Source: a virus. From it: 32,000 nucleotides of DNA. The notes under the pieces are model-generated. The model was not told the DNA's origin, did no database searches, and was given only the letters and a program-made list of their open reading frames with translations. Location of the stretch: IMG/VR virus record IMGVR_UViG_3300029374_000341, positions 1 to 32,000 of that record; one strand, 5' to 3'. Positions 4,941-27,504 of this stretch are shown here, one piece after another. Position 1 is the stretch's first letter. Each line of letters starts with the position of its first letter. The translations under genes and the position numbers were made by a program.

Positions 4941-5834
4941 ATGCTATATTCAGAAAAATTAACATCTTGGTTAAAAGAAAAGAAAATCTATCTAAAATAC
5001 AGCACTTACACAAATTATTGTAATGTGATCCACAATCACATCATGCCAAAACTAGGCAATTATCAGATTGAAGATTTGAACAACGATATTCTGCAGGAGT
5101 TTATTCTTCAAAAACTTGAAAATGGTCGTAAAGATGGAAAAGGTGGCATATCATTCAAATATGCCAAAGACATTATTCAAATTCTTAAATTTACGCTTCC
5201 ATTCAAAGTCGATGTTCAGTTACCTTACCATCCTCCTAAGGCGGTTGAGATTTTTGAAAAAGAACATCAAATTTCATTGATTAATCACCTCCAATCTGAG
5301 ATCAACTGTAAAAACTTTGGAATACTTTTATGCATCCACACCGGAATACGCATAGGTGAACTATGCGCTTTGAAATGGTCTGATATAAATGTACAGACCA
5401 AACTTTTAAAAATCGACAAAACCATGATACGAACATACACAAAAGAAGACGGTAGTCATCTTTCAATAACACCGTCTAAATCACGTTCTAGCACTCGTAT
5501 GATTCCGTTGAACACTTGGATAATGCATTACGCAATACTGCTTCAAGGTGATGCAGACAACTATGTGTTAACGAATCGAGATAAACCAATAGAACCTAAT
5601 AAATATAGGCTTTACTACAACCGAATATTGAAAGAACTTGAACTCCCACATCGTAAATTCCACGCGCTCCGACACACATTTGCAACTAGATGTATAGAAT
5701 GTGGATGTGACTATAAATCATTGAGTGAATTGCTTGGACATTCAAACGTATCAATTACCATGAATATATATGTACATCCGCAAATGGAGTTAAAACGAAA
5801 ATGTGTAGAATTGCTTTGTGATTACTATAAGTAA
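4941..5834 (+). CDS. tyrosine recombinase (Xer/phage-integrase family), predicted tail-fibre shufflon invertase
   Basis: 297 aa and the only long plus-strand gene in the prophage. GAGG RBS. Catalytic blocks are visible: HTGIRIGEL (Arg I), FHALRHTFAT (H-x-x-R), LLGHSNVSITMNIYVH (His II / Tyr). The stop at 5832-5834 lies 2 nt before crossover core A. Confidence 0.85.
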   Translation: MLYSEKLTSWLKEKKIYLKYSTYTNYCNVIHNHIMPKLGNYQIEDLNNDILQEFILQKLENGRKDGKGGISFKYAKDIIQILKFTLPFKVDVQLPYHPPKAVEIFEKEHQISLINHLQSEINCKNFGILLCIHTGIRIGELCALKWSDINVQTKLLKIDKTMIRTYTKEDGSHLSITPSKSRSSTRMIPLNTWIMHYAILLQGDADNYVLTNRDKPIEPNKYRLYYNRILKELELPHRKFHALRHTFATRCIECGCDYKSLSELLGHSNVSITMNIYVHPQMELKRKCVELLCDYYK

Positions 5835-5849: not shown

Positions 5850-6141
5850 ATCAAAATCTGTGGGAGGTGAATACAATCATTTACTTACTGAAAACGAAAT
5901 GCCTATACATAGACACTACGAATATATATTCGTTAAAGGATATCCGGATTGGCCTGTAGTAGATGTAAATGCATATGGAGTCATGATTGACTTTGCAACA
6001 TCAAACTATGTAGCTCCAAATCAAAGTGTTAATGCAACTGATACAAATACATTTGCACATACAGAATTTGCAGGGGGTAACACTGAACACAATAACATGC
6101 AACCATATTTAGTTGTTTTCTTTTGGCGAAGGGTAAAATAG
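5839..6141 (+). CDS. silent tail-fibre C-terminal cassette A (tail-collar tip module, promoterless, opposite strand to the fibre gene)
   Basis: MSFTSKSVGGEYNHLLTENEMPIHRH...GGNTEHNNMQPYLVVFFWRRVK parallels the last 83 aa of the fibre ORF 6423-8258. No RBS of its own. It begins inside core A. Confidence 0.75.
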   Translation: MSFTSKSVGGEYNHLLTENEMPIHRHYEYIFVKGYPDWPVVDVNAYGVMIDFATSNYVAPNQSVNATDTNTFAHTEFAGGNTEHNNMQPYLVVFFWRRVK

Positions 6142-6420
6142 CTACTTGATACGTCTCCAAAAGTAAGTTACCACGTAAGGTTGTACATTATCGTGAGGTT
6201 TGTTTCCGCCTGTTGGATATGTTTGACCGTACCAATAATAATTAGTTCTCTCAGCACGTTCAGTGGCTCTCGTAAAAGGAACATCACTATATGGATTACC
6301 ATATAATGCAGTGGTTACATCAGTTTGTTGGTCTAAGATCCAATGCGTATGGCTCGGTAGCTCTTCACGTGTAAGTTTATGATAGTAGTCTCCACCAATC
6401 CATCCAGCAGTAAAGGACAT
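6142..6420 (-). CDS. silent tail-fibre C-terminal cassette B (tail-collar tip module)
   Basis: MSFTAGWIGGDYYHKLTREELPSHTH...GGNKPHDNVQPYVVTYFWRRIK. It starts 2 nt after the fibre stop with no SD and begins inside core B. It abuts cassette A tail-to-tail with zero spacer. Confidence 0.75.
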   Translation of the reverse strand: MSFTAGWIGGDYYHKLTREELPSHTHWILDQQTDVTTALYGNPYSDVPFTRATERAERTNYYWYGQTYPTGGNKPHDNVQPYVVTYFWRRIK

Positions 6421-17398: not shown

Positions 17399-17935
17399 TT
17401 ACGCTTCCTTAGTTACATCCTTATAAACGTAAGATGCAATCTCCTGTTGTTCTTTAGTTACTGATGCATATCCATCTGCACCATTTCCATTTGCTCCAAA
17501 CGTTAAATCAACTTCCACAGAGCCTTCAGCTTCAGATGAAATCGAGCATTCTGTTAAATATCCTTGGTAGTATTTGGCTTTAAACTTACCAGCATTTGTT
17601 TCAGTTCCTTCTTCTGCTAGGTTTACTTCCCAACATTCGACTAATTCATCTGCCAACATAGCCTTTTCTAATTTATCAATGATTGCATCACCTTTTGGCA
17701 TAATAGATGTCGATGTGATTTCAATTTCTGCCACTGATGGTGTACGAATAGTTCCATCTTTTGTAGCAGTTGTATCTGCATCTTTTGTAACGTTTCGTTC
17801 GTTTTCTGTTGGGAAAGCAATTGCACTAGCATTTTCTTTCTTTGAATCTTTTGCAACTCTGAAAAGATAAATAAGCTGCTTACCATTTACCACTTCAATT
17901 ACTTTATCTGCGAACATTTGTAAATCAAATTTCAT
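17399..17935 (-). CDS. major tail protein (TP901-1 / Phage_tail_2-like)
   Basis: 178 aa at the canonical position before the chaperones. The N-terminus MKFDLQMFADK carries an L27-type Prp cleavage motif. Confidence 0.8.
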   Translation of the reverse strand: MKFDLQMFADKVIEVVNGKQLIYLFRVAKDSKKENASAIAFPTENERNVTKDADTTATKDGTIRTPSVAEIEITSTSIMPKGDAIIDKLEKAMLADELVECWEVNLAEEGTETNAGKFKAKYYQGYLTECSISSEAEGSVEVDLTFGANGNGADGYASVTKEQQEIASYVYKDVTKEA

Positions 17936-19340: not shown

Positions 19341-20546
19341 CTATGCCTTTAAATCAACAACTACATCGCCTTTTGATACTGCTTTGTAGTTTTTGTCACA
19401 TTCAACTACTGTACAATGATTAGTTTCTGCTGCTTTAATATCTGCTCCTTCTTCGAAGTTCTTCCAAGATTTTACATCTGCACCATATGCCACTGTTTCT
19501 TCAGAAGCTCCTACCTTATATTTGAATTTGTTATTCATAGATTGTAACTGTTCTGCAACCGCTACTTTTGTAGTTCCTGTTTCTTCGCCTTGAGAAGCAG
19601 TCAATGTTAAATCACGTAATGTTTGAGTATCGGCATCACCTACTGCAAAGTGTGCAATTGCATCTTGATATTCGCACATTAAACGTAATCCCATGATTGC
19701 GAACATATCAGAAATAGCACGATCATAGTTTCCTTCTACATGGAATCCTAAGAAGCCAGTAGTACTGTCAGTAGTATATGAAAGTCCTGCTTTTACAAAT
19801 TCAGAATCACTTGGATCTACATAATATGCAATGATGTTGTTCATTGGAGTTGCTACTACTGTTTTTTCTGCAACTCGGTCTGTTAAGAATACAATATCTG
19901 CTCCTAAAAAGTTTTTAATGTAAGTCAAACCAAATGCAGTCTGCATAGATACTTTAGCTTCTCCTAAATAGCGATATGCATCCAAAGTATTTACGAATAC
20001 AACAATACCAGTGGTATTTCGTTTCATTTGTTGGAATTTGTGTTTAACATTACCGATTGCCATTGCGATAGCCATTTGCCAAGTAGCTTCATGACCTACT
20101 AAGCTACCTGAATTCAACTGTTTATATAAGCGATCAGTGATGTTATCTTGCAAATCAATACGGAACTGTTCGTCAGTATCAGATACTGCAGCTTCATATC
20201 CTTTCTCTGCAATTGCTTCAATAGAAACGGCTTTGCGGAATTTCTCGATTCGAATTGTATCGAACACTTCTTCTTCAACTTTGTATTCGCTTAATGGAAT
20301 TGATTCACCTTCTGCTACCTTTCCATCCTGTAATGTTCCTGTTACTTTCTTTGTTTTTAAAACAGAACCGTTTGCTTTACGGATTGGACGAATGATTCCT
20401 AATACATCCAATAAAGCTTGGATGTTCTTTCCAAAACTAGTAACGAAATCAATTTCGTGTGCTCTAACTTGGATGTTACCTGCTCCTGTTAATCCTGTAG
20501 GTGCTGCAAACATTTGTAAGTTCATGCCTTTATAAATTTTTTTCAT
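19341..20546 (-). CDS. major capsid protein (HK97 fold, 80alpha/SPP1-like module)
   Basis: 401 aa after the scaffold gene. N-terminus MKKIYKGMNLQMFAAPTG carries the Prp-type cleavage motif. AGAGG SD. Confidence 0.85.
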   Translation of the reverse strand: MKKIYKGMNLQMFAAPTGLTGAGNIQVRAHEIDFVTSFGKNIQALLDVLGIIRPIRKANGSVLKTKKVTGTLQDGKVAEGESIPLSEYKVEEEVFDTIRIEKFRKAVSIEAIAEKGYEAAVSDTDEQFRIDLQDNITDRLYKQLNSGSLVGHEATWQMAIAMAIGNVKHKFQQMKRNTTGIVVFVNTLDAYRYLGEAKVSMQTAFGLTYIKNFLGADIVFLTDRVAEKTVVATPMNNIIAYYVDPSDSEFVKAGLSYTTDSTTGFLGFHVEGNYDRAISDMFAIMGLRLMCEYQDAIAHFAVGDADTQTLRDLTLTASQGEETGTTKVAVAEQLQSMNNKFKYKVGASEETVAYGADVKSWKNFEEGADIKAAETNHCTVVECDKNYKAVSKGDVVVDLKA

Positions 20547-20573
20547 ATGTAATTAACCTCTTTCTATTTATAT

Positions 20574-21209
20574 TTACTGGAATAAATCCATATTTTCCGC
20601 AATCATGCGTTGTCTTTCCATTGGATCAGGGATACTCAAGATTGATTCACGAGTTACCCCTTTGTTTGAACCTCCACGTTTAGGACCGTTTCCTTTCAGT
20701 TTATCTTTAACTGCTTTTTCTACTTCAGATTCAAACATCTTAACAAATGCATCAACCGCTTTCTTTGTTTTATCTGCATCTTTATTAACTAGAACAGATA
20801 AAAGGTCATCTCCAACGTTAATATCACGCTCTGCGCACATTTTACGTGCTTCATTTGTCATTTCTGCGATTGCGTTTTTTGCTTTCAATTCATCTAGCTC
20901 TTTTTGCACTTTGTCACGTTCTGCTTCTGCTCGTTCTTGTGCATTCATTTCGGCTAAGCGCTTAGCTTCTGCTTTTTCTTTTTCTTGATCTGCTTTCCAA
21001 CGTGCAAACCTTTTATCAAGAATCGCATCCAAATCTTTATCTGAATATTTCTTTTCAGATGATTTGTCTTTTTCTTGGTTGTCTTGTCCCTCAGTTGATT
21101 GAGTCTGAGTTGATTGAGTGTTTTCTGCTCCTGTACTCTCATTCTCACCTGAAGTTTCATCTGCAAAAAGTTGTAAGCAAAAAGGTAGTCTGTCATTGAA
21201 TTTTTTCAT
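20574..21209 (-). CDS. capsid scaffolding protein (DUF4355-like)
   Basis: 211 aa from the ATG at 21209 (AGGAGG 9 nt upstream). Acidic and helical, with YSDKDLDAILDKRFARWKADQEKEK. N-terminus MKKFNDRLPFCLQLFADETSG carries the Prp motif. Confidence 0.85.
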   Translation of the reverse strand: MKKFNDRLPFCLQLFADETSGENESTGAENTQSTQTQSTEGQDNQEKDKSSEKKYSDKDLDAILDKRFARWKADQEKEKAEAKRLAEMNAQERAEAERDKVQKELDELKAKNAIAEMTNEARKMCAERDINVGDDLLSVLVNKDADKTKKAVDAFVKMFESEVEKAVKDKLKGNGPKRGGSNKGVTRESILSIPDPMERQRMIAENMDLFQ

Positions 21210-21298
21210 ATATATTTTTCCTCCTATTTTTCTGACTTTGCTTGTCAATTTCCCATATCTTTTTAAGGCATAAATGCTTGGCCTATAACCCATACAGT

Positions 21299-21466
21299 TT
21301 AACGACGTGAATGCTTGGTCTTGTTTGGTAGTGTGGATATGTAGACTTTATAAGTCTTGGCTTTTCCACAAAAAATGCACCGTTGATTACGTACTTCAAC
21401 GATGCATTCTAGCCATTGATCATAATATTGTCTTTCGACACGCTCCAAATATTTGTGATTACACAT
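21299..21466 (-). CDS. small Cys-containing ORF (55 aa), unknown function
   Basis: Below the track cutoff. Its ATG overlaps the Prp stop (GATGTGTAA). MCNHKYLERVERQYYDQWLECIVEVRNQRCIFCGKAKTYKVYISTLPNKTKHSRR*. The CxxC plus upstream Cys/His suggest a possible zinc ribbon. Confidence 0.35.
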   Translation of the reverse strand: MCNHKYLERVERQYYDQWLECIVEVRNQRCIFCGKAKTYKVYISTLPNKTKHSRR

Positions 21467-21767
21467 CTTTCAGTTCCACACATTCAGGATATGCTTCTTC
21501 TGTGCCTTTGCAGCCTATTCTGAAGAAATTAATTGCTAGTTCTCCAGCAAGGTCCAAACCCGAGATATACAACGTCTTGCTATCTTTATCAGGTTCGTAA
21601 TATCTGCAAAGTGCATCCGATGTTTCGTCGATTGAAATGGCCAATGTCAAAAATAGTACTGAGATAGCGCTGCAGACGATATCCTTTCCTATCGGAGCGT
21701 AACGAGCATGGCCATGCACTTCAATCAGGCAATCACTTTCTGTCTGTTTAATTTTAATTTTTATCAC
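21459..21767 (-). CDS. prp: Prp-like cysteine protease (ribosomal-processing cysteine protease / DUF464 family homologue)
   Basis: 102 aa with a GTG start and GGGAG SD. MIKIKIK...IEVHGHARYAPIGKDIVCSAISVL reproduces the Prp His/Cys dyad context (GHA......G.DiVCAavS). Located between the head-morphogenesis and scaffold genes. Confidence 0.7.
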   Translation of the reverse strand: MIKIKIKQTESDCLIEVHGHARYAPIGKDIVCSAISVLFLTLAISIDETSDALCRYYEPDKDSKTLYISGLDLAGELAINFFRIGCKGTEEAYPECVELKDV

Positions 21768-21835: not shown

Positions 21836-22054
21836 TTAGCACCAAGCAACAGTGCCTGCCTTTTCTCCTGCTGAAATGCCCCATAGAGCATGGCCTGCAT
21901 AATACTGCTTAACATCAACGGATGACTGTTCTAACACTTCGCGATTCCCGTCATCGTATATCGCAACTTTTCCTTTTGCGTTTGGGTCTATGTCAGGTGA
22001 AAACAAATACACATATCTGCCATTTTTATATTCTAATAGCTCAAATGTAATCAT
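21836..22054 (-). CDS. small protein of unknown function downstream of the MuF-domain gene
   Basis: 72 aa with a strong AGAGGTGG SD. MITFELLEYKNGRYVYLFSPD...YYAGHALWGISAGEKAGTVAWC. Followed by a terminator. Confidence 0.6.
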   Translation of the reverse strand: MITFELLEYKNGRYVYLFSPDIDPNAKGKVAIYDDGNREVLEQSSVDVKQYYAGHALWGISAGEKAGTVAWC

Positions 22055-22078: not shown

Positions 22079-23503
22079 TTATACATCATGGTCCTTAAGA
22101 TACTCAAGCAATTCTTTTTGATAATTATATATTTTTTGGACTCTTTCATGACTATCTTCATATATAACATCGAGGCTATCTTGCATTTCTTTCTCTTCAG
22201 CTAATTCATGATTTAACATTGTTATATCGTGTTTTTGAATATCCTTTCCCTGTCTTAGTCTAAGCCAAGAATGTGCCATATAATAGTCAGGGTCAAACTT
22301 TTTTATTTCTCCACTTCTAAATTTATGTTTGCGAATAAACACATGTTCATATATATTACTTACCTCTTCCTCTGTAAAACCTGAATTTTTAGCTACTTGT
22401 TTTATTTCATAAGACTTTTTTCTATTTGTAATTTGAGCGTACAGTGCTTTTGCAATCTCGTCTCTTTTTTTATAGTTTGGGTCATTTTCATTATTCCAAG
22501 CGCCATTTAATGCACCAGAGTTATTTGTTTTGGCCTCTAGTTCTTTCCACTCGTCAAACCTTAGATCATGCTCTCCATTTGCTAATCCATCTAGCCATTT
22601 CTCGTATACTCCTCTATCTGAATAAGGTGCTGTTGCACAATGACAATTTGGATGCATAGGTGGAGCGTTATCGCCTATTTTCATGTCTTTAAGCTTGAAT
22701 GTTTTGCCATCCATTTCTTTACACAAAGGACACACATCTTTTAAGCTACACGCTATGTATTCATACTCATCTATTCCGTTTGCTTCGTAAGATTCAATCT
22801 GCGCTTGTGTTTGAACTCGTGCAATCTCGGTTCTTAACAATCTTTCTGCATTGCATCTTGATACATCGAACTTTTTACGAATGAGCGGAATAAATTCTCT
22901 AGGATTCTTGCCTTGAATCAATGCATTGGATAAAACACTGGATAAACTGTTTTTTAACTGGTCTTGATTGACCCAAATTCGTTCTGAAAAGGTTGCGTTC
23001 TTAAAAGATGAATCTGCTACTGCTTTGGCTGTCTTCGCATTGTCAATCACTGTATCACCTAAGATAGAAGCATTACGTTTGATCTCTTCTAAATACGCAC
23101 CTTCTAGCTTATCACCAGTATACGACTTCAATTCGTCATGGCCTGCCACAAGCTCTAATCCAATGTTTGCTTTTAAAAGTTCCAATCGGTTGACTTTCAT
23201 TGCAAGATTATAAAGTCTCATCTGTTCATTGGCTTCATCTGAAAAGTTCTTTTCCTTTACATACTTCTTAGCTTTTCTTTTATATGCCTCAATATCTATG
23301 TTTGAAACTCTTTTTTTAGCTTCTGCCATAGTAATGTTTTCTTTATTTGCATAGCGAGTAAAAAAGGATTCGATTTCCTTTTCAACCGAATCCATCATAT
23401 TTGCATATATTTCTTGTATCTCATCCGCATATTCCTGTTCATCTTTTAAGCGTTCCTTTTTCCATTCAAGCTCACGATCTCGCCAATATGTTTTACTGCT
23501 CAT
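22079..23503 (-). CDS. head morphogenesis protein, SPP1 gp7 / Mu F family, with ~170-aa C-terminal extension
   Basis: 474 aa from the ATG at 23503. The MuF signature ACSLKDVCPLCKEMDGKTF...DNAPPMHPNCHCATAPY lies near residues 250-300, followed by an unassigned C-terminal domain. Confidence 0.85.
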   Translation of the reverse strand: MSSKTYWRDRELEWKKERLKDEQEYADEIQEIYANMMDSVEKEIESFFTRYANKENITMAEAKKRVSNIDIEAYKRKAKKYVKEKNFSDEANEQMRLYNLAMKVNRLELLKANIGLELVAGHDELKSYTGDKLEGAYLEEIKRNASILGDTVIDNAKTAKAVADSSFKNATFSERIWVNQDQLKNSLSSVLSNALIQGKNPREFIPLIRKKFDVSRCNAERLLRTEIARVQTQAQIESYEANGIDEYEYIACSLKDVCPLCKEMDGKTFKLKDMKIGDNAPPMHPNCHCATAPYSDRGVYEKWLDGLANGEHDLRFDEWKELEAKTNNSGALNGAWNNENDPNYKKRDEIAKALYAQITNRKKSYEIKQVAKNSGFTEEEVSNIYEHVFIRKHKFRSGEIKKFDPDYYMAHSWLRLRQGKDIQKHDITMLNHELAEEKEMQDSLDVIYEDSHERVQKIYNYQKELLEYLKDHDV

Positions 23504-24851
23504 CGTTTTGTGAATCCTCATTATTTTGGAAGATTCGGTTTTCAGTTTCTACCATATCATTCTCATCTTCCTTTTTGATACGTTCCAATTCGGCATTCGT
23601 ATCTTCAACTGCCGAGATAAATGACAATTGGGTTTCGTGAGACACGATTCCTGATAATTGTGCAGCAGTCTGTGCTTCTTCTAATAAGTTTGCAGGATAA
23701 TTTTGTGTAAACTTGTATTCAACCTCAAGCCAGTCGTCTTCAGAACGATGTGTGATCGCATTACTAAATAAGACTCGATATCTACGATTCATTCCAGACG
23801 TGAACTTTCGCTCTTTCGCTTTTGCCAGGTTTGACATAGAAAGAAGTTTATATCTCAATGCAATTCCTGATGACGTTCCAAAGTTCTCATCATTGATATT
23901 GGCCACCATTGAGTTTTGGAAGATTAAGCGTTCTAATCTGTTGATCAGATTTTCCTGTGTTGCATCTGCATTTGGCTTTGACATGAAATCAACTACAATT
24001 CCATCACCACTTCCATCCATTGACTCAAAGTTAATTGTTCGATTATCACGAATGTGTACTAAATCAGACTCTTCTAATTTTGGGCCTAAGATTTTTAAAT
24101 AGGCATCAGCAAAATAATCAACATCATTTGCTTTTTCTGACATTGCCTTATTATAAGCATTAATCAAACTGTATGTTGATTCAAAAATAGACATACGTTC
24201 TTCATTCTCAATAAATTCAGTGGCCGGAATATCATTGAATCCATGCTCTACGCCATTAAATACATGAAGGCCACCTTTATCGTTGAACTCATACTTATAT
24301 GTTTTGTCGTAGATATATCCACGCATAACCTCGTCTACAATCTGATATGTTACAAAATATCTAGGTTTCTGAACTGTTGATTCATCATAAACCATGAAGC
24401 CTTCTCTTGGATCTAAATAGGTAATCCCTAGATTTCCATAATCATCATTGAAATACAATTCATATCCTTTTCCAAAAACACTACAAATCTTAGATAGTTC
24501 TGCATTGTTGTCGTCTTGGTCATTGTATTTATCTAGCAAGTTGATATAATCATCAATTTCTTTTTTCTTTGATGAGACTTTGATTGGAACACCAATAAAA
24601 AAACCGTTGAATGTATCAACAATGTATTTTGCAAAGTTGACCACAACACGGTTATCGGGTTTATAGGCTTCTTTGTTGGCTTGATGCAAGATTGGATAAT
24701 CACCAATATAGGCATCAAATAGCTTTTTATATCTGTTTGTGATTAACGATTTATGCTTTGTTATCAATCCATTCAACACTTCAATGTCAAGGATATCTTT
24801 ATCATCAGATAGCTTAAATATCGTATCCGGTTTAATAATGTATGCGTTCAT
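23493..24851 (-). CDS. portal protein, SPP1 gp6 family
   Basis: 452 aa directly after TerL (TAATG overlap). Size, acidic C-tail and position are typical of SPP1-type portals. Confidence 0.88.
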   Translation of the reverse strand: MNAYIIKPDTIFKLSDDKDILDIEVLNGLITKHKSLITNRYKKLFDAYIGDYPILHQANKEAYKPDNRVVVNFAKYIVDTFNGFFIGVPIKVSSKKKEIDDYINLLDKYNDQDDNNAELSKICSVFGKGYELYFNDDYGNLGITYLDPREGFMVYDESTVQKPRYFVTYQIVDEVMRGYIYDKTYKYEFNDKGGLHVFNGVEHGFNDIPATEFIENEERMSIFESTYSLINAYNKAMSEKANDVDYFADAYLKILGPKLEESDLVHIRDNRTINFESMDGSGDGIVVDFMSKPNADATQENLINRLERLIFQNSMVANINDENFGTSSGIALRYKLLSMSNLAKAKERKFTSGMNRRYRVLFSNAITHRSEDDWLEVEYKFTQNYPANLLEEAQTAAQLSGIVSHETQLSFISAVEDTNAELERIKKEDENDMVETENRIFQNNEDSQNDEQ

Positions 24852-25593
24852 TAAAGTCCTCCTTTAAATGTTCTTACTTTAACTCGACCAAATGCATATT
24901 TTTCAACTGCATAACGCATCGAGTCCATTAAGTGGTTAAAATCATCAATTGGGCGGTTAATTTTGTTGCCCAATCTATCTTCATCCCATGTGTAGTTTCC
25001 TATTTCAGTTATGAAATTAACACATCTAGGATGAATGATAATTTCGAAATCTTGAATATACTGAATTCCATGTGTAATGGAATCCTTTCCCTTTTGTGAC
25101 TTTTCAACACGAAGACCATACCCCCTAAGTTCATCAATTGACTTAGGTTCTGCACAGTCTGCCGTGAAAGACTTCTTTTGATAATGTGAGCTTTCAATCT
25201 CTTCATAAAGCCTTTTATTAGAAAGGCCTTTTTTATAAATTTCATCCCAAACATAGAGTTTCTTATGTTCTGTATCAATGAAACCTATAAAAACTGCAGC
25301 AGGATCATTTGTATAACCGAAGTCAATACCATTTACAGATTCACAGTCAATAACCTGATCTAGTGTGAATTCTTCCTCTTTCCAATTCTCATAAACCAAT
25401 CCATCAACAATACCCCAATTTCCTAATCCAGCAACTTGATATCGTCTAGGATTGTTCTTCTTCATGTTTTCAAACAACCTTAAATCGGCATCATCCAACC
25501 ATTCATTACACTTATAATTGGTTGTGATAGCCAATATATCAGGGTCATTCTCTGCATCAAAGAAACGTTTTTTAAGCCAATGGTGTTCGTTCC
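24851..25593 (-). CDS. terL: terminase large subunit, exon 2 (nuclease half)
   Basis: The frame continues ...(W)NEHHWLKKRFFDAENDPDILAITTNYKCNEWL... There is no SD before the track's ATG at 25606. It joins in frame to exon 1 at the predicted splice sites. Confidence 0.8.
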
Positions 25594-26509
25594 CATTTGT
25601 GTTCATGTAAGGTCGTTAATCTTACACCGCTTTCGCAGCTCATTGTTACCAATGAGATCAGACTATATCACCATCTTGAATTTTCAAGATGCCCCCCATT
25701 TCCGCTCACTTGAGCGTACTCCATTAAAAAAACCGCATTAACTGCGGTTAGGATAGTCGTTAAACTTTTTTTATTTTCATTCCGTTAATAACACATTCGT
25801 TTGATTTAGATAATTTATTTATTAATTTAGTTGATAAATTATATCTCTTTTGTAATTGATATCCGCTTATAAATACTTCACCTGTTGTCTCGTTTATATA
25901 CTTTCCAGTTAGTTCGATTTCTATAAGCTCTCCAGATTCAACCATTTTATAAACCTTATGCCTTGTAACACCTAAACAATCAGCAGCTTCTCTCATTGAT
26001 GAAAAACATTGTTTTCCATCTGGTGTAGAAACTGGCTTTCTTATTGAATTGTTTAGATCTTCTTTTTGTTCACCAGTCCATACATTTGCTATGGTCTTTT
26101 TGTGCTTTTCTGTATAAGCGATTTCTTTATCTATTGCATCTTTTTTTGTGCTTGCAGTATCAACGATTGCTATTTCAACATCTTTGAACAATTCAAGATT
26201 GTTTGCAATCATGTATTTATGTATTGGCTGTTGACGTGTTTTATCTCTAAAGCCTCTTCTATGCTCATTGATACGAGCACCGATTGTCCGTGTGCTTCCT
26301 ACATAAATAATCTTTTGTGTTTTAATTTCTCTAAATAGATATATGTAATAAAATGGTGTTTGTTTCATATCTATATTTTACCATTATATTCCATTCCAAG
26401 CAACAAACGAAAATAAAACTTAGCTTTTGATTGCCCTCTCTTTCGAGTAGGGTTTTCCAAAAATTAAAGGGGTTTTCATATAAAATCACTTTTATATGCC
26501 GCAAAATCT
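25594..26509 (-). mobile_element. putative group I intron (about 916 nt) carrying a GIY-YIG homing endonuclease ORF
   Basis: It interrupts the terL frame precisely. Exon CCGU pairs with intron GCGG, giving a U.G wobble at the 5' splice site, and the last intron nucleotide is G. Hairpins are dense on both sides of the HEG ORF, several with GNRA loops. Confidence 0.7.
25760..26368 (-). CDS. GIY-YIG homing endonuclease (I-TevI-like architecture)
   Basis: 202 aa. FYYIYLFRE...IIYVGSTRTIGARINEHRR carries the GIY / YIG / R..E motifs. C-terminal HTH-like segments (REAADCLGVTRHKVYKMV; YQLQKRYNLSTKLINKL). Confidence 0.85.
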   Translation of the reverse strand: MKQTPFYYIYLFREIKTQKIIYVGSTRTIGARINEHRRGFRDKTRQQPIHKYMIANNLELFKDVEIAIVDTASTKKDAIDKEIAYTEKHKKTIANVWTGEQKEDLNNSIRKPVSTPDGKQCFSSMREAADCLGVTRHKVYKMVESGELIEIELTGKYINETTGEVFISGYQLQKRYNLSTKLINKLSKSNECVINGMKIKKV

Positions 26510-27023
26510 ACGGGTTGAATGTAATCATCCACTGTTTCCAAAGATAAGGCGGTAACTCACCACGAATCGACTCATCCAATGTATCAAAGTCTTTTTCGCT
26601 CGTTATTTCATAAGCTTCTTCGAGCCATACCCAACATAGAAACCCATAATCTACAGTAATAGATGTTATTTTTAACGGATCATCAAGCCCTCTAAAGAGA
26701 ATCTTCTGCCCAGTTGGAAGATATGTTGCCTCCAAAGGCGAATATTTAAATTCCCATAAGTGTTCAACCTCTAATCTTCTTGTTGCCCATTTTAAATCCG
26801 TGAAGCACGAATCTTTAAGTGTTCGATAAGTCTTACGAACTACCAATGTATTCGACTTATCATACTTCATCATGTTGTAGATAATTCGCAATGCAGTTGT
26901 TTTTGACTTCTTAGAAGCACGAGAACCTTTGCATGCTGCATAACGTCCCCTGAAGTTCCAATAGGATTTATATCCTTTTCCAACTATTTTAGGTAAATTG
27001 ATAGATTTAGTCTTCAAGCTCAT
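26510..27023 (-). CDS. terL: terminase large subunit, exon 1 (ATPase half, PBSX/Terminase_3 type)
   Basis: From the ATG at 27023 (AAGGAG upstream). Walker-A-like CKGSRASKKSKT, then ...WVWLEEAYEI...LWKQWMITFNP, with a TAG immediately after the predicted 5' splice site. Confidence 0.8.
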
Positions 27024-27504
27024 CCTCTCCTTCAAACTTAGGTACTACGATTTCTGATTGAACTTTATCTGTAAACAGTGAATATCTTTTTCCAAGTAAT
27101 TCTGCAGCTTTATTTGCATCAGAAAGCTTTGCAGGAATCTCAACAATTTGAGGAACTTCTTCTTTGACTGTTTTCTTTCTCGGCTTTCCATCTCCTGTAT
27201 CGACATACTCTGAGCGTTCTTTTGTCACTGTAACAACAACAGATTCCTTCATTTCTCGTCGCATTACTTTTGTGAGGTATTCCATGACTTCTTGAACATC
27301 TGCTATCTTTCCCGAACTGACTTTTTCAAGTTGTTCATCAATATAAGCTTTGACCTTAACATTTCTTAACAATCTTGAAGCAGCAGACATTGCAGCACCA
27401 TCTGACTTTACATGAGGATACGCAACTTTATATGCCCTTGTTGCATTCAGATCAATCAAATACTCGTCTACAAATATTTTCTGCTTTTCAGTCAACTTAG
27501 CCAT
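27007..27504 (-). CDS. terS: terminase small subunit (Terminase_2 / P27 family)
   Basis: 165 aa. MAKLTEKQKIFVDEYLIDLNATRAYKVAYPHVKSDGAAMSAASRLLRNVKVKAYI is the classic N-terminal HTH region of this family. Confidence 0.9.
   Translation of the reverse strand: MAKLTEKQKIFVDEYLIDLNATRAYKVAYPHVKSDGAAMSAASRLLRNVKVKAYIDEQLEKVSSGKIADVQEVMEYLTKVMRREMKESVVVTVTKERSEYVDTGDGKPRKKTVKEEVPQIVEIPAKLSDANKAAELLGKRYSLFTDKVQSEIVVPKFEGEDELED

Follow-up and report, generated by a model that had tools for sequence, protein, structure and literature searches.

A Prp-family protease gene in the head operon of a temperate siphophage, and LQxF/A tags predicted to be trimmed from its scaffold, capsid and tail tube proteins

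Cleavage of phage structural proteins by Prp (YsxB), the bacterial cysteine protease that removes an N-terminal extension from ribosomal protein L27, has been described for the staphylococcal phage 80alpha, in which host Prp cuts the capsid protein gp47 and the scaffold gp46 and the procapsids already contain the cleaved proteins, a tagged tail protein being mentioned only for phi13 (PMC5744158). The L27 consensus reads MLxx(D/N)LQ(F/L)F'A(S/H)KK and the two 80alpha sites read ..KFNLQFF'ADQS and ..KLNLQHF'ASNN (the prime marking the cut), and the Prp of each species is highly specific for its own L27 tag (PMC9405229). The prp gene is reported to be present in all Firmicutes (PMC12324487), and a 2025 preprint from the discoverers of Prp mentions the tag only "in some staphylococcal bacteriophages". 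The present study concerns a stretch of 32,000 nucleotides (nt) of viral DNA, positions 1 to 32,000 of IMG/VR record IMGVR_UViG_3300029374_000341 (hereafter the window), in which the late operon of a temperate gut siphophage (~35% GC, all genes on the minus strand) encodes a 102-amino acid (aa) Prp-like protein of its own together with three structural proteins that begin with an LQxF/A tag (the slash marking the predicted cut). From comparisons of sequence and predicted structure, we consider it probable that the phage Prp is made from the head operon and trims the phage’s own scaffold, capsid and tail tube proteins at this motif.

Two of the three tags had been recognized in an earlier inspection of the letters of the window (the sequence-only reading), which placed LQxF/A at the N-termini of the scaffold (MKKFNDRLPFCLQLF/ADETSG) and of the capsid protein (MKKIYKGMNLQMF/AAPTG), and both sequences were found on the minus strand as described. 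The scaffolding protein (20574-21209, minus strand; 211 aa; DUF4355/80alpha gp46 family, PF14265 at 109 bits, phrog_172) most likely has its start codon at 21209 (ATG, with GGAGG 10 nt upstream), the longest ORF (open reading frame) at this place beginning at 21293; its predicted propeptide, MKKFNDRLPFCLQLF, comprises 15 aa (21165-21209, minus strand). The major capsid protein (19341-20546, minus strand; 401 aa; phrog_544 "major head protein", PF18316) carries the predicted 13-aa propeptide MKKIYKGMNLQMF (20508-20546, minus strand). A third carrier had been overlooked, namely, the major tail (tube) protein of the TP901-1 family (17399-17935, minus strand; 178 aa; TIGR02126 at 86.8 bits, PF06199, phrog_238), which begins MKFDLQMF/ADKVIE, has AGGAGG 9 nt upstream of its start, and has a predicted propeptide of 8 aa, MKFDLQMF (17912-17935, minus strand). 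The tags occupy residues 11-15 of the scaffold, 10-14 of the capsid protein and 5-9 of the major tail protein. A six-frame translation of the window contains LQxFA at exactly three places, each at the N-terminus of one of these structural proteins; the relaxed pattern L[QN]xF[AS] yields eight matches in the same 32 kb, of which only the three LQxFA ones fall on real genes, and a relaxed scan of 32 window genes returned no further LQ-type N-terminal motif. A chance origin of the tags is excluded; by our estimate, about 0.01 N-terminal matches would be expected at random. The sites themselves (CLQLF/A in the scaffold, NLQMF/A in the capsid protein, DLQMF/A in the tail tube) resemble those of 80alpha-type substrates, in which (D/N)LQxF precedes a small residue, and fit both the L27 consensus and the 80alpha sites quoted above.

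The likeness to 80alpha extends from the type of N-terminal tag and the F/A cut to the DUF4355 scaffold, the module of SPP1-type portal, Mu F-like protein, scaffold and capsid protein, and the lack of a classical prohead protease. The window scaffold is a full-length homologue of gp46 (32% identity, E=7e-19) in which DRLPFCLQLFADETS aligns with NKLKFNLQFFADQSD, and the alignment therefore falls on the very F/A bond that host Prp cuts in 80alpha (PMC5744158). The window phage differs in that it encodes Prp itself, whereas 80alpha lacks prp and depends on the Prp of its host; in its capsid protein, which shows no detectable similarity to gp47 beyond the tag; and in its tagged tail tube, which is 33% identical to the 80alpha major tail protein, the latter being without the extension. 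Among related tail proteins in 208 phage records, most align only from window residue 17-18 onward, and the extension-less tail tube homologues of Enterococcus phage EFC-1 (MANEAKVAAKG..) and Brochothrix phage NF5 (MAEAKKG..) begin at the predicted mature N-terminus of the window protein, so that the tail tag behaves as a removable add-on. Apart from its tag, the window capsid protein carries at residues 319-395 (19341-19592, minus strand) a C-terminal Ig-like domain (S-layer SbsC_C, 45 bits), a family that matched none of the other members of an alignment of 16 capsid proteins; the fused domain probably serves to decorate the capsid surface.

The ORF at 21459-21767 (minus strand) had been taken as a Prp (DUF464) homologue by the sequence-only reading, and this assignment is borne out by a search with the Pfam profile hidden Markov model (HMM), by individual residues and by the predicted fold. 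The gene starts with GTG, has GGGAG 9 nt upstream, and encodes 102 aa that contain HGHARYAPIGKDIVCSAIS. The product matches PF04327 (MEROPS C108) with 58.9 bits against a cut-off of 27 over profile positions 1-89 of 90, and phrog_4478 ("peptidase"). In a phmmer search against PDB sequences (4PEO/7KLD), His20 and Cys32 correspond to the catalytic residues His22 and Cys34 of the Staphylococcus aureus enzyme (SaPrp), the mutants G21A, H22A, D31A, C34A/S and S38A of which are inactive and in which Gly29 forms the second hinge of the flexible loop L2 (PMC9405229). The window residues Gly19, His20, Gly27, Asp29, Cys32 and Ser36 match SaPrp Gly21, His22, Gly29, Asp31, Cys34 and Ser38 with equal spacing, and all six are among the 13 invariant columns of an alignment of the window Prp with seven phage homologues of identities down to 28%.

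Wider conservation was assessed in a survey of loci retrieved with the pattern DIVC[SA]A[IV]S, according to which at least 519 IMG/VR contigs, among the 600 matching stretches listed, encode a Prp relative; 80 IMG/VR loci among the matches listed were combined with two cultured phages into a set of 82 loci, the Prps of which form 17 clusters at 70% identity. The core residues are kept in all 17 clusters, a conservation that is partly circular because the search pattern pre-selects an intact active-site helix. Prps that cleave L27 have a long L2 loop (Gly21-Asp31) and an acidic isoelectric point (pI), whereas those that do not have a short loop (PMC9405229); all 17 phage clusters have a Gly-to-Asp span of 11 residues, equal to that of SaPrp, and the pI ranges from 4.3 to 6.9. 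An AlphaFold2 (AF2) model of the window Prp (pLDDT 90.2, pTM 0.82) has the element order E-E-H-E-E-H-E, and all 14 significant Foldseek hits in the PDB are Prp structures (TM 0.68-0.79), the best matches being the SaPrp-substrate and SaPrp-inhibitor complexes 7KLD and 7JVS (TM 0.75-0.77; 0.77 for 7KLD). Taken together, the residues and the model indicate that the window Prp is likely an active enzyme.

While the window Prp shares with bacterial Prp the family, the fold, the catalytic dyad, the essential residues, the long L2 loop and the (D/N)LQxF'A motif, it is only ~20% identical to the solved host Prps and its predicted substrates are virion proteins. Its gene stands in a head operon rather than in the rplU-prp-rpmA context, with neighbours on the Mu F-like gene side and the scaffold side of the head module. 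It matched 11 NCBIfam equivalog models and failed all of them, scoring 16-35 bits against cut-offs of 122-225 (best 35 against 133). The failing equivalog scores and the head-module context mark it as a Prp-family member that is not the host housekeeping orthologue, and scores so far below every host Prp equivalog cut-off indicate that the phage prp is not a recent capture. The idea that a weak GTG start holds the protease at catalytic levels was dropped, the GTG being confined to the window’s own cluster; among the representatives of the 16 other clusters, 14 have an ATG start and one start could not be resolved.

The association of prp with the tags recurs throughout the survey. When the plus-strand ORFs of the 82 loci were searched for L[QN]xF[AS] in their first 60 residues, the motif was found in 210 of 821 ORFs downstream of prp and in 0 of 654 upstream, and at least one tag carrier was present in 80 of the 82 loci. 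The carriers are always of three kinds, a scaffold of ~200 aa, a capsid protein of ~300-400 aa and a tail tube protein of ~180 aa; by family, 14 of 16 scaffolds match DUF4355 and 11 of 12 tail tubes Phage_tail_2, and the capsid proteins match five different Pfam capsid families. The prp gene lies directly upstream of the tagged scaffold and capsid genes and, in the loci examined, never beside translation genes. In an alignment of 16 scaffolds with a mean identity of 27%, no column is invariant except the L, Q, F and A of the tag; among the 16 aligned capsid proteins, L and Q never vary and F and A hardly do. Aligned on the cut, the tags show F/I/M at P6, N/D at P5, L at P4, Q at P3, a variable P2 (L, M, R, K, I, H), F at P1, A at P1' and E/D/A at P2'. 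In the SaPrp complex, the P1 Phe stacks on His22, the P3 Gln stabilises loop L2 via Gly29 and Asp31, the dimer interface buries P4 and P6, and P1' is limited in size (PMC9405229); the tag logo agrees with these structural roles of the substrate positions.

Departures from the canonical cut site were also observed. Position P1 is His in a capsid protein (NLQLH/AA) and a tail protein (NLQLH/AE), Cys in a tail protein with DLQLC/AA, and Leu in the tail protein of Enterococcus phage phiFL3A (DLQLL/AG), and P1' is Asn in DLQLF/NE, Ser in the capsid protein of the Lactococcus prophage TP712 and Thr in Dorea phage DO134P1 (locus positions of cut-site variants: L069:8119, L069:10719, L081:10492, L070:3165 and L091:11875). 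Cleavage at such sites could be slowed or lost, or the sites could reflect an altered specificity of the protease. Several tape measure proteins (L056:12578, L057:12575, L069:12270 and L074:10699) contain a conserved internal ELQ[KD]FA[EKT] ~20 residues after an internal Met, which is probably part of a conserved core and not a Prp site.

In six contigs of a 62%-GC IMG/VR lineage (L068, L072-L077), Prp and scaffold are encoded in one in-frame ORF of 434-436 aa (e.g., L072:7001-8311), with the tag MKLQ[LM]F/AEGG 20 residues beyond the Prp domain. Fusion is a classical indicator of two proteins working together, and the arrangement suggests that the fused protease could enter the procapsid along with the scaffold and then release itself by cutting at the tag. 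The capsid protein of this lineage has relatives in Streptomyces and Bacillus megaterium phages, and Bacillus phage Pony is without the tag and without prp. Phages that carry prp in hosts lacking Prp, for instance Actinobacteria, would prove self-sufficiency and were sought in this connection; they found no support, the Prp domain of the fusion lineage matching by tblastn only Firmicute and gut metagenomic phages.

Cultured phages show the same combination. Brochothrix phage BL3 (protease gp6) has tagged scaffold, capsid and tail proteins, Oenococcus phage Krappator27 has prp and tagged proteins, and in TP712 (protease orf36) scaffold and capsid protein are both tagged. All three proteins are tagged in phiFL3A, the gp45 of which is annotated "DUF464" and the tail tag of which is the one with Leu at P1, and all three are tagged with the canonical LDLQRF/A in the Lactobacillus prophage Lj965, which also has its own Prp. 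Dorea phage DO134P1 (L085, OP172779.1) has an unannotated Prp-like gene at ~5268-5555 (HMM E=2e-14) in a gap free of annotated coding sequences; no ATG, GTG or TTG stands at the expected start, the homologous N-terminus beginning at a CTG or ATT codon, and the tags of this phage are variants (NLQLF in the scaffold, GLQVF/T in the capsid protein and GLQVF/S in the tail protein). In five cultured phages, prp lies between the portal and scaffold genes. When a second Prp was used as query, tblastn returned 31 phage records in which every named host is a Firmicute. Neither tag nor prp was present in Streptococcus phage Javan484 or in Pony, and tags without a phage prp occur in 80alpha (negative by HMM), EFC-1 and NF5; thus, a phage prp is almost always accompanied by tags, and tags can occur without a phage prp.

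The pathway that these observations point to would begin with a Prp-type cysteine protease produced together with the head proteins from the head-gene operon. The enzyme would recognise the N-terminal [F/I/M]-[N/D]-L-Q-x-F/A, the recognition sequence of the L27-processing protease, and would cut after the Phe, taking 15 residues off the scaffold, 13 off the capsid protein and 8 off the tail tube and leaving mature N-termini that begin with Ala, in a trimming step resembling that of 80alpha. We infer both the cleavage itself and its agent, the phage enzyme acting instead of host Prp or along with it. The benefit to the phage would be a private and sufficient supply of protease, matched to its tags and abundant enough for a burst of structural proteins, by which virion assembly would be uncoupled from the species-specific Prp/L27 pair of the host; independence from host Prp is plausible on these comparisons. 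The sequence-only reading had proposed a self-contained head-maturation system, and the family, the motifs, their recurrence and the fusion support the proposal, with the amendment that the system is not one of the head alone and reaches the tail tube as well; its supposed borrowing from ribosome biogenesis presupposes a direction of transfer.

More speculatively, Prp and its six-residue tag may form a portable "assembly licence", in which the tag blocks polymerisation or maturation of the subunit until the matched protease removes it, as with L27. Such a module would be freed from the co-evolution of host Prp and L27, could move between Firmicute classes, and could persist where the host tag has drifted, as in Lactobacillus johnsonii; we put this forward tentatively and with considerable doubt. 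The combination of prp and tag was found in phages of Erysipelotrichia-like, Listeriaceae, Lactobacillales and Clostridia hosts.

Several points weigh against trimming by the phage enzyme. Cleavage of the capsid and scaffold proteins is dispensable for the viability of 80alpha, in which the scaffold N-terminal peptide is still required (PMC5744158), and so cleavage may not be an essential step. Given that 80alpha, EFC-1 and NF5 carry tags without prp, host Prp can process such tags and the phage copy may be redundant. Finally, 53 of the 82 loci belong to the window’s own cluster, and the conservation of the active site is in part a product of the search pattern, as noted above.

The alternative that survives best, which we nevertheless regard as unlikely, is that host Prp cleaves the phage proteins and that the phage copy mainly processes host L27 (or FlhB), so as to sustain or raise ribosome maturation in the infected cell, or backs up a host enzyme that is limiting or shut off. 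The phage tags match the L27 consensus (D/N)LQ(F/L)F'A, which makes cross-reaction with L27 plausible; the three tagged phages just named manage without a prp of their own; and every cultured host found belongs to the Firmicutes, which reportedly possess a Prp of their own (PMC12324487). Such a main role for the phage copy is hard to square with the position of prp upstream of the tagged head genes and away from translation genes, with the fusion of Prp to the scaffold in one lineage, and with the tagged structural proteins in all but two of the surveyed loci. It is also at odds with Lj965, since the L27 tag of L. johnsonii is divergent (MM..INNLEALKLF'AHHK, with Lys at P3; PMC9405229 Table 2) and the canonical tags and own Prp of the prophage fit an enzyme that serves the phage tags; read from the tags, this contrast hints that phage and host enzymes differ in specificity.

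A second alternative, to which we assign a still smaller probability, holds that the extension is a folding or assembly tag, that the Prp-like protein acts as a chaperone or checkpoint, and that cleavage is incidental or absent. The 80alpha precedent lends it some weight, the N-terminal peptide of the scaffold being required there and its cleavage not, a shared chaperone or regulatory role having been suggested, and an association of Prp with large self-assembling complexes having been noted (PMC5744158); likewise, Prp has been proposed to act as a chaperone of L27 (PMC9261936). Pure binding would have no need of the catalytic residues, which are strictly conserved in every phage lineage, and the nearly invariant Phe at P1 and Ala at P1' and the extension-less homologues that begin at the predicted cut site likewise argue for proteolysis. 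A coincidental similarity, the ORF being a remnant without activity and the N-terminal motifs a product of chance, has only the shortness of the motif in its favour; it is refuted by the comparative data (motif statistics, conservation, the confident fold match and recurrence in many lineages) and retains a negligible probability.

Trimming by a phage Prp can also be set against the other proteases known from phage head maturation. MEROPS clan CR has been described as having one member besides Prp, the maturation protease of Streptococcus phage Cp-1 (orf13). A weak match to the Prp profile (18.5 bits, E=0.002) spans the whole of this protein, and the fold is also seen in its SOCP homologue. 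Unlike the window Prp, Cp-1 orf13 does not reach the Pfam cut-off and is without the GH..G.DIVC core, and Cp-1 is a phi29-like podophage, the capsid protein of which has no LQxF/A tag at its N-terminus and reportedly loses ~40 residues. The classical prohead proteases (HK97 gp4/S78, T4 gp21, ClpP-like S14 and lambda C/S49) resemble the window Prp in being encoded next to the scaffold and capsid genes and in processing capsid proteins, the role predicted for it. Their fold is unrelated to that of Prp, their nucleophile is a serine, and within the procapsid they break down scaffolds or delta domains; protease-scaffold fusions, which the Prp-scaffold fusion resembles, occur among them. The Prp-type step would instead clip a short N-terminal tag, the tail protein included, without wholesale degradation of the scaffold.

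A full-text literature search found no published account linking a phage prp with tags, although a passing mention in the original papers of Wall et al. is possible, and the database labels on the phage gene ("peptidase", "ribosomal protein", "DUF464", "YsxB-like protein" and "Cysteine protease") are diverse. What thus appears to be undescribed is that the phage encodes the protease itself, that the tail tube is among the tagged proteins, that Prp can be fused to the scaffold and that the family is so broad; the mechanism itself is familiar. If trimming by phage Prp is borne out, Prp processing would be a general and often self-encoded step of morphogenesis in hundreds of Firmicute phages, acting on both head and tail tube. 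It would supply a rule of annotation, by which mature N-termini can be predicted from a cut after the F in [N/D]LQxF/A, useful for virion mass spectrometry and for model building in cryo-electron microscopy (cryo-EM), and would give a name to a phage gene that now bears these various labels or is, as in DO134P1, unannotated. The question of why Firmicutes and their phages tag the subunits of large assemblies would become testable, as a phage prp can be deleted whereas host prp is essential in S. aureus; TP712 in Lactococcus lactis and phiFL3A in Enterococcus faecalis are candidate systems. Prp is pursued as an antibiotic target, and prophage-borne Prps with the same recognition motif could allow bypass of, or resistance to, Prp-directed drugs, as has recently been reported for the Rrp protease of Streptococcus pneumoniae TIGR4. 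Small (~100 aa) sequence-specific proteases with short tags, available as many diverged pairs of enzyme and tag, could also serve as tools in biotechnology.

A megablast search with 8 kb for a near-identical cultured phage gave only a 125-bp match, to Dorea phage DO134P1. Regarding the host of the window phage, the only GTDB match was a contig of Holdemanella porci (NZ_VUMR01000011.1; L084, ~5954-6250), in which 297 bp of prp match at 96.6%, prp is truncated after residue 83, and a second piece of 324 bp matches the Mu F-like gene at 89%. The contig thus holds a mosaic or decayed prophage, and the host of the window phage is only tentatively a relative of Holdemanella.

The order of genes in the window is TerS, split TerL, SPP1-type portal, Mu F-like minor head protein, a 72-aa ORF, the Prp-like ORF, a 55-aa ORF, scaffold and major capsid protein, followed by four connector/tail-completion genes, the major tail protein, tail chaperones, tape measure protein, Dit, tail proteins, endolysin and integrase. 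The portal lies at 23493-24851 (minus strand; PF05133, 384 bits) and the Mu F-like protein at 22079-23521 (minus strand; PF04233, 72 bits). Scans of the head-module and other window proteins against Pfam and PHROGs gave no match to the classical prohead protease families (ClpP, S49 and HK97-type; S78, S14 and S77), and the phrog_595 label "head maturation protease" falls on the Mu F-like protein, where it is weaker than the match to phrog_115 "minor head protein"; by its gene content, the head module is of the 80alpha/SPP1 type without a classical prohead protease.

The 72-aa ORF (21836-22054, minus strand), of unassigned function, had no hits at all, and neither it nor the Prp-like ORF matched the defence-system protein models of PADLOC. 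The sequence-only reading had placed prp right next to the scaffold gene, which proved inexact, the 249-nt gap between them being filled by the 55-aa ORF (21299-21466, minus strand). This ORF is rich in Cys (C2, C21, C30 and C33), overlaps the prp stop by 8 nt, and has no Pfam match and weak matches only elsewhere (phrog_30609, E=9e-4; PtuB-like in PADLOC, 15 bits); it may lie outside the system, and the spacing between prp and scaffold is highly variable in other lineages of the survey. The TerL gene is split (24851-27035, minus strand), with 26508-27035 covering Terminase_3 positions 4-137 and 24851-25606 covering positions 139-200 plus the nuclease domain. No Rfam family matched anywhere in the window, and no Rfam intron family scored above threshold at the interruption. 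The gap of ~900 bp between the two TerL parts holds an ORF (25760-26368) with a GIY-YIG domain (38 bits) and a helix-turn-helix, and, from this content, the interruption looks like an intron or a homing-endonuclease insertion.

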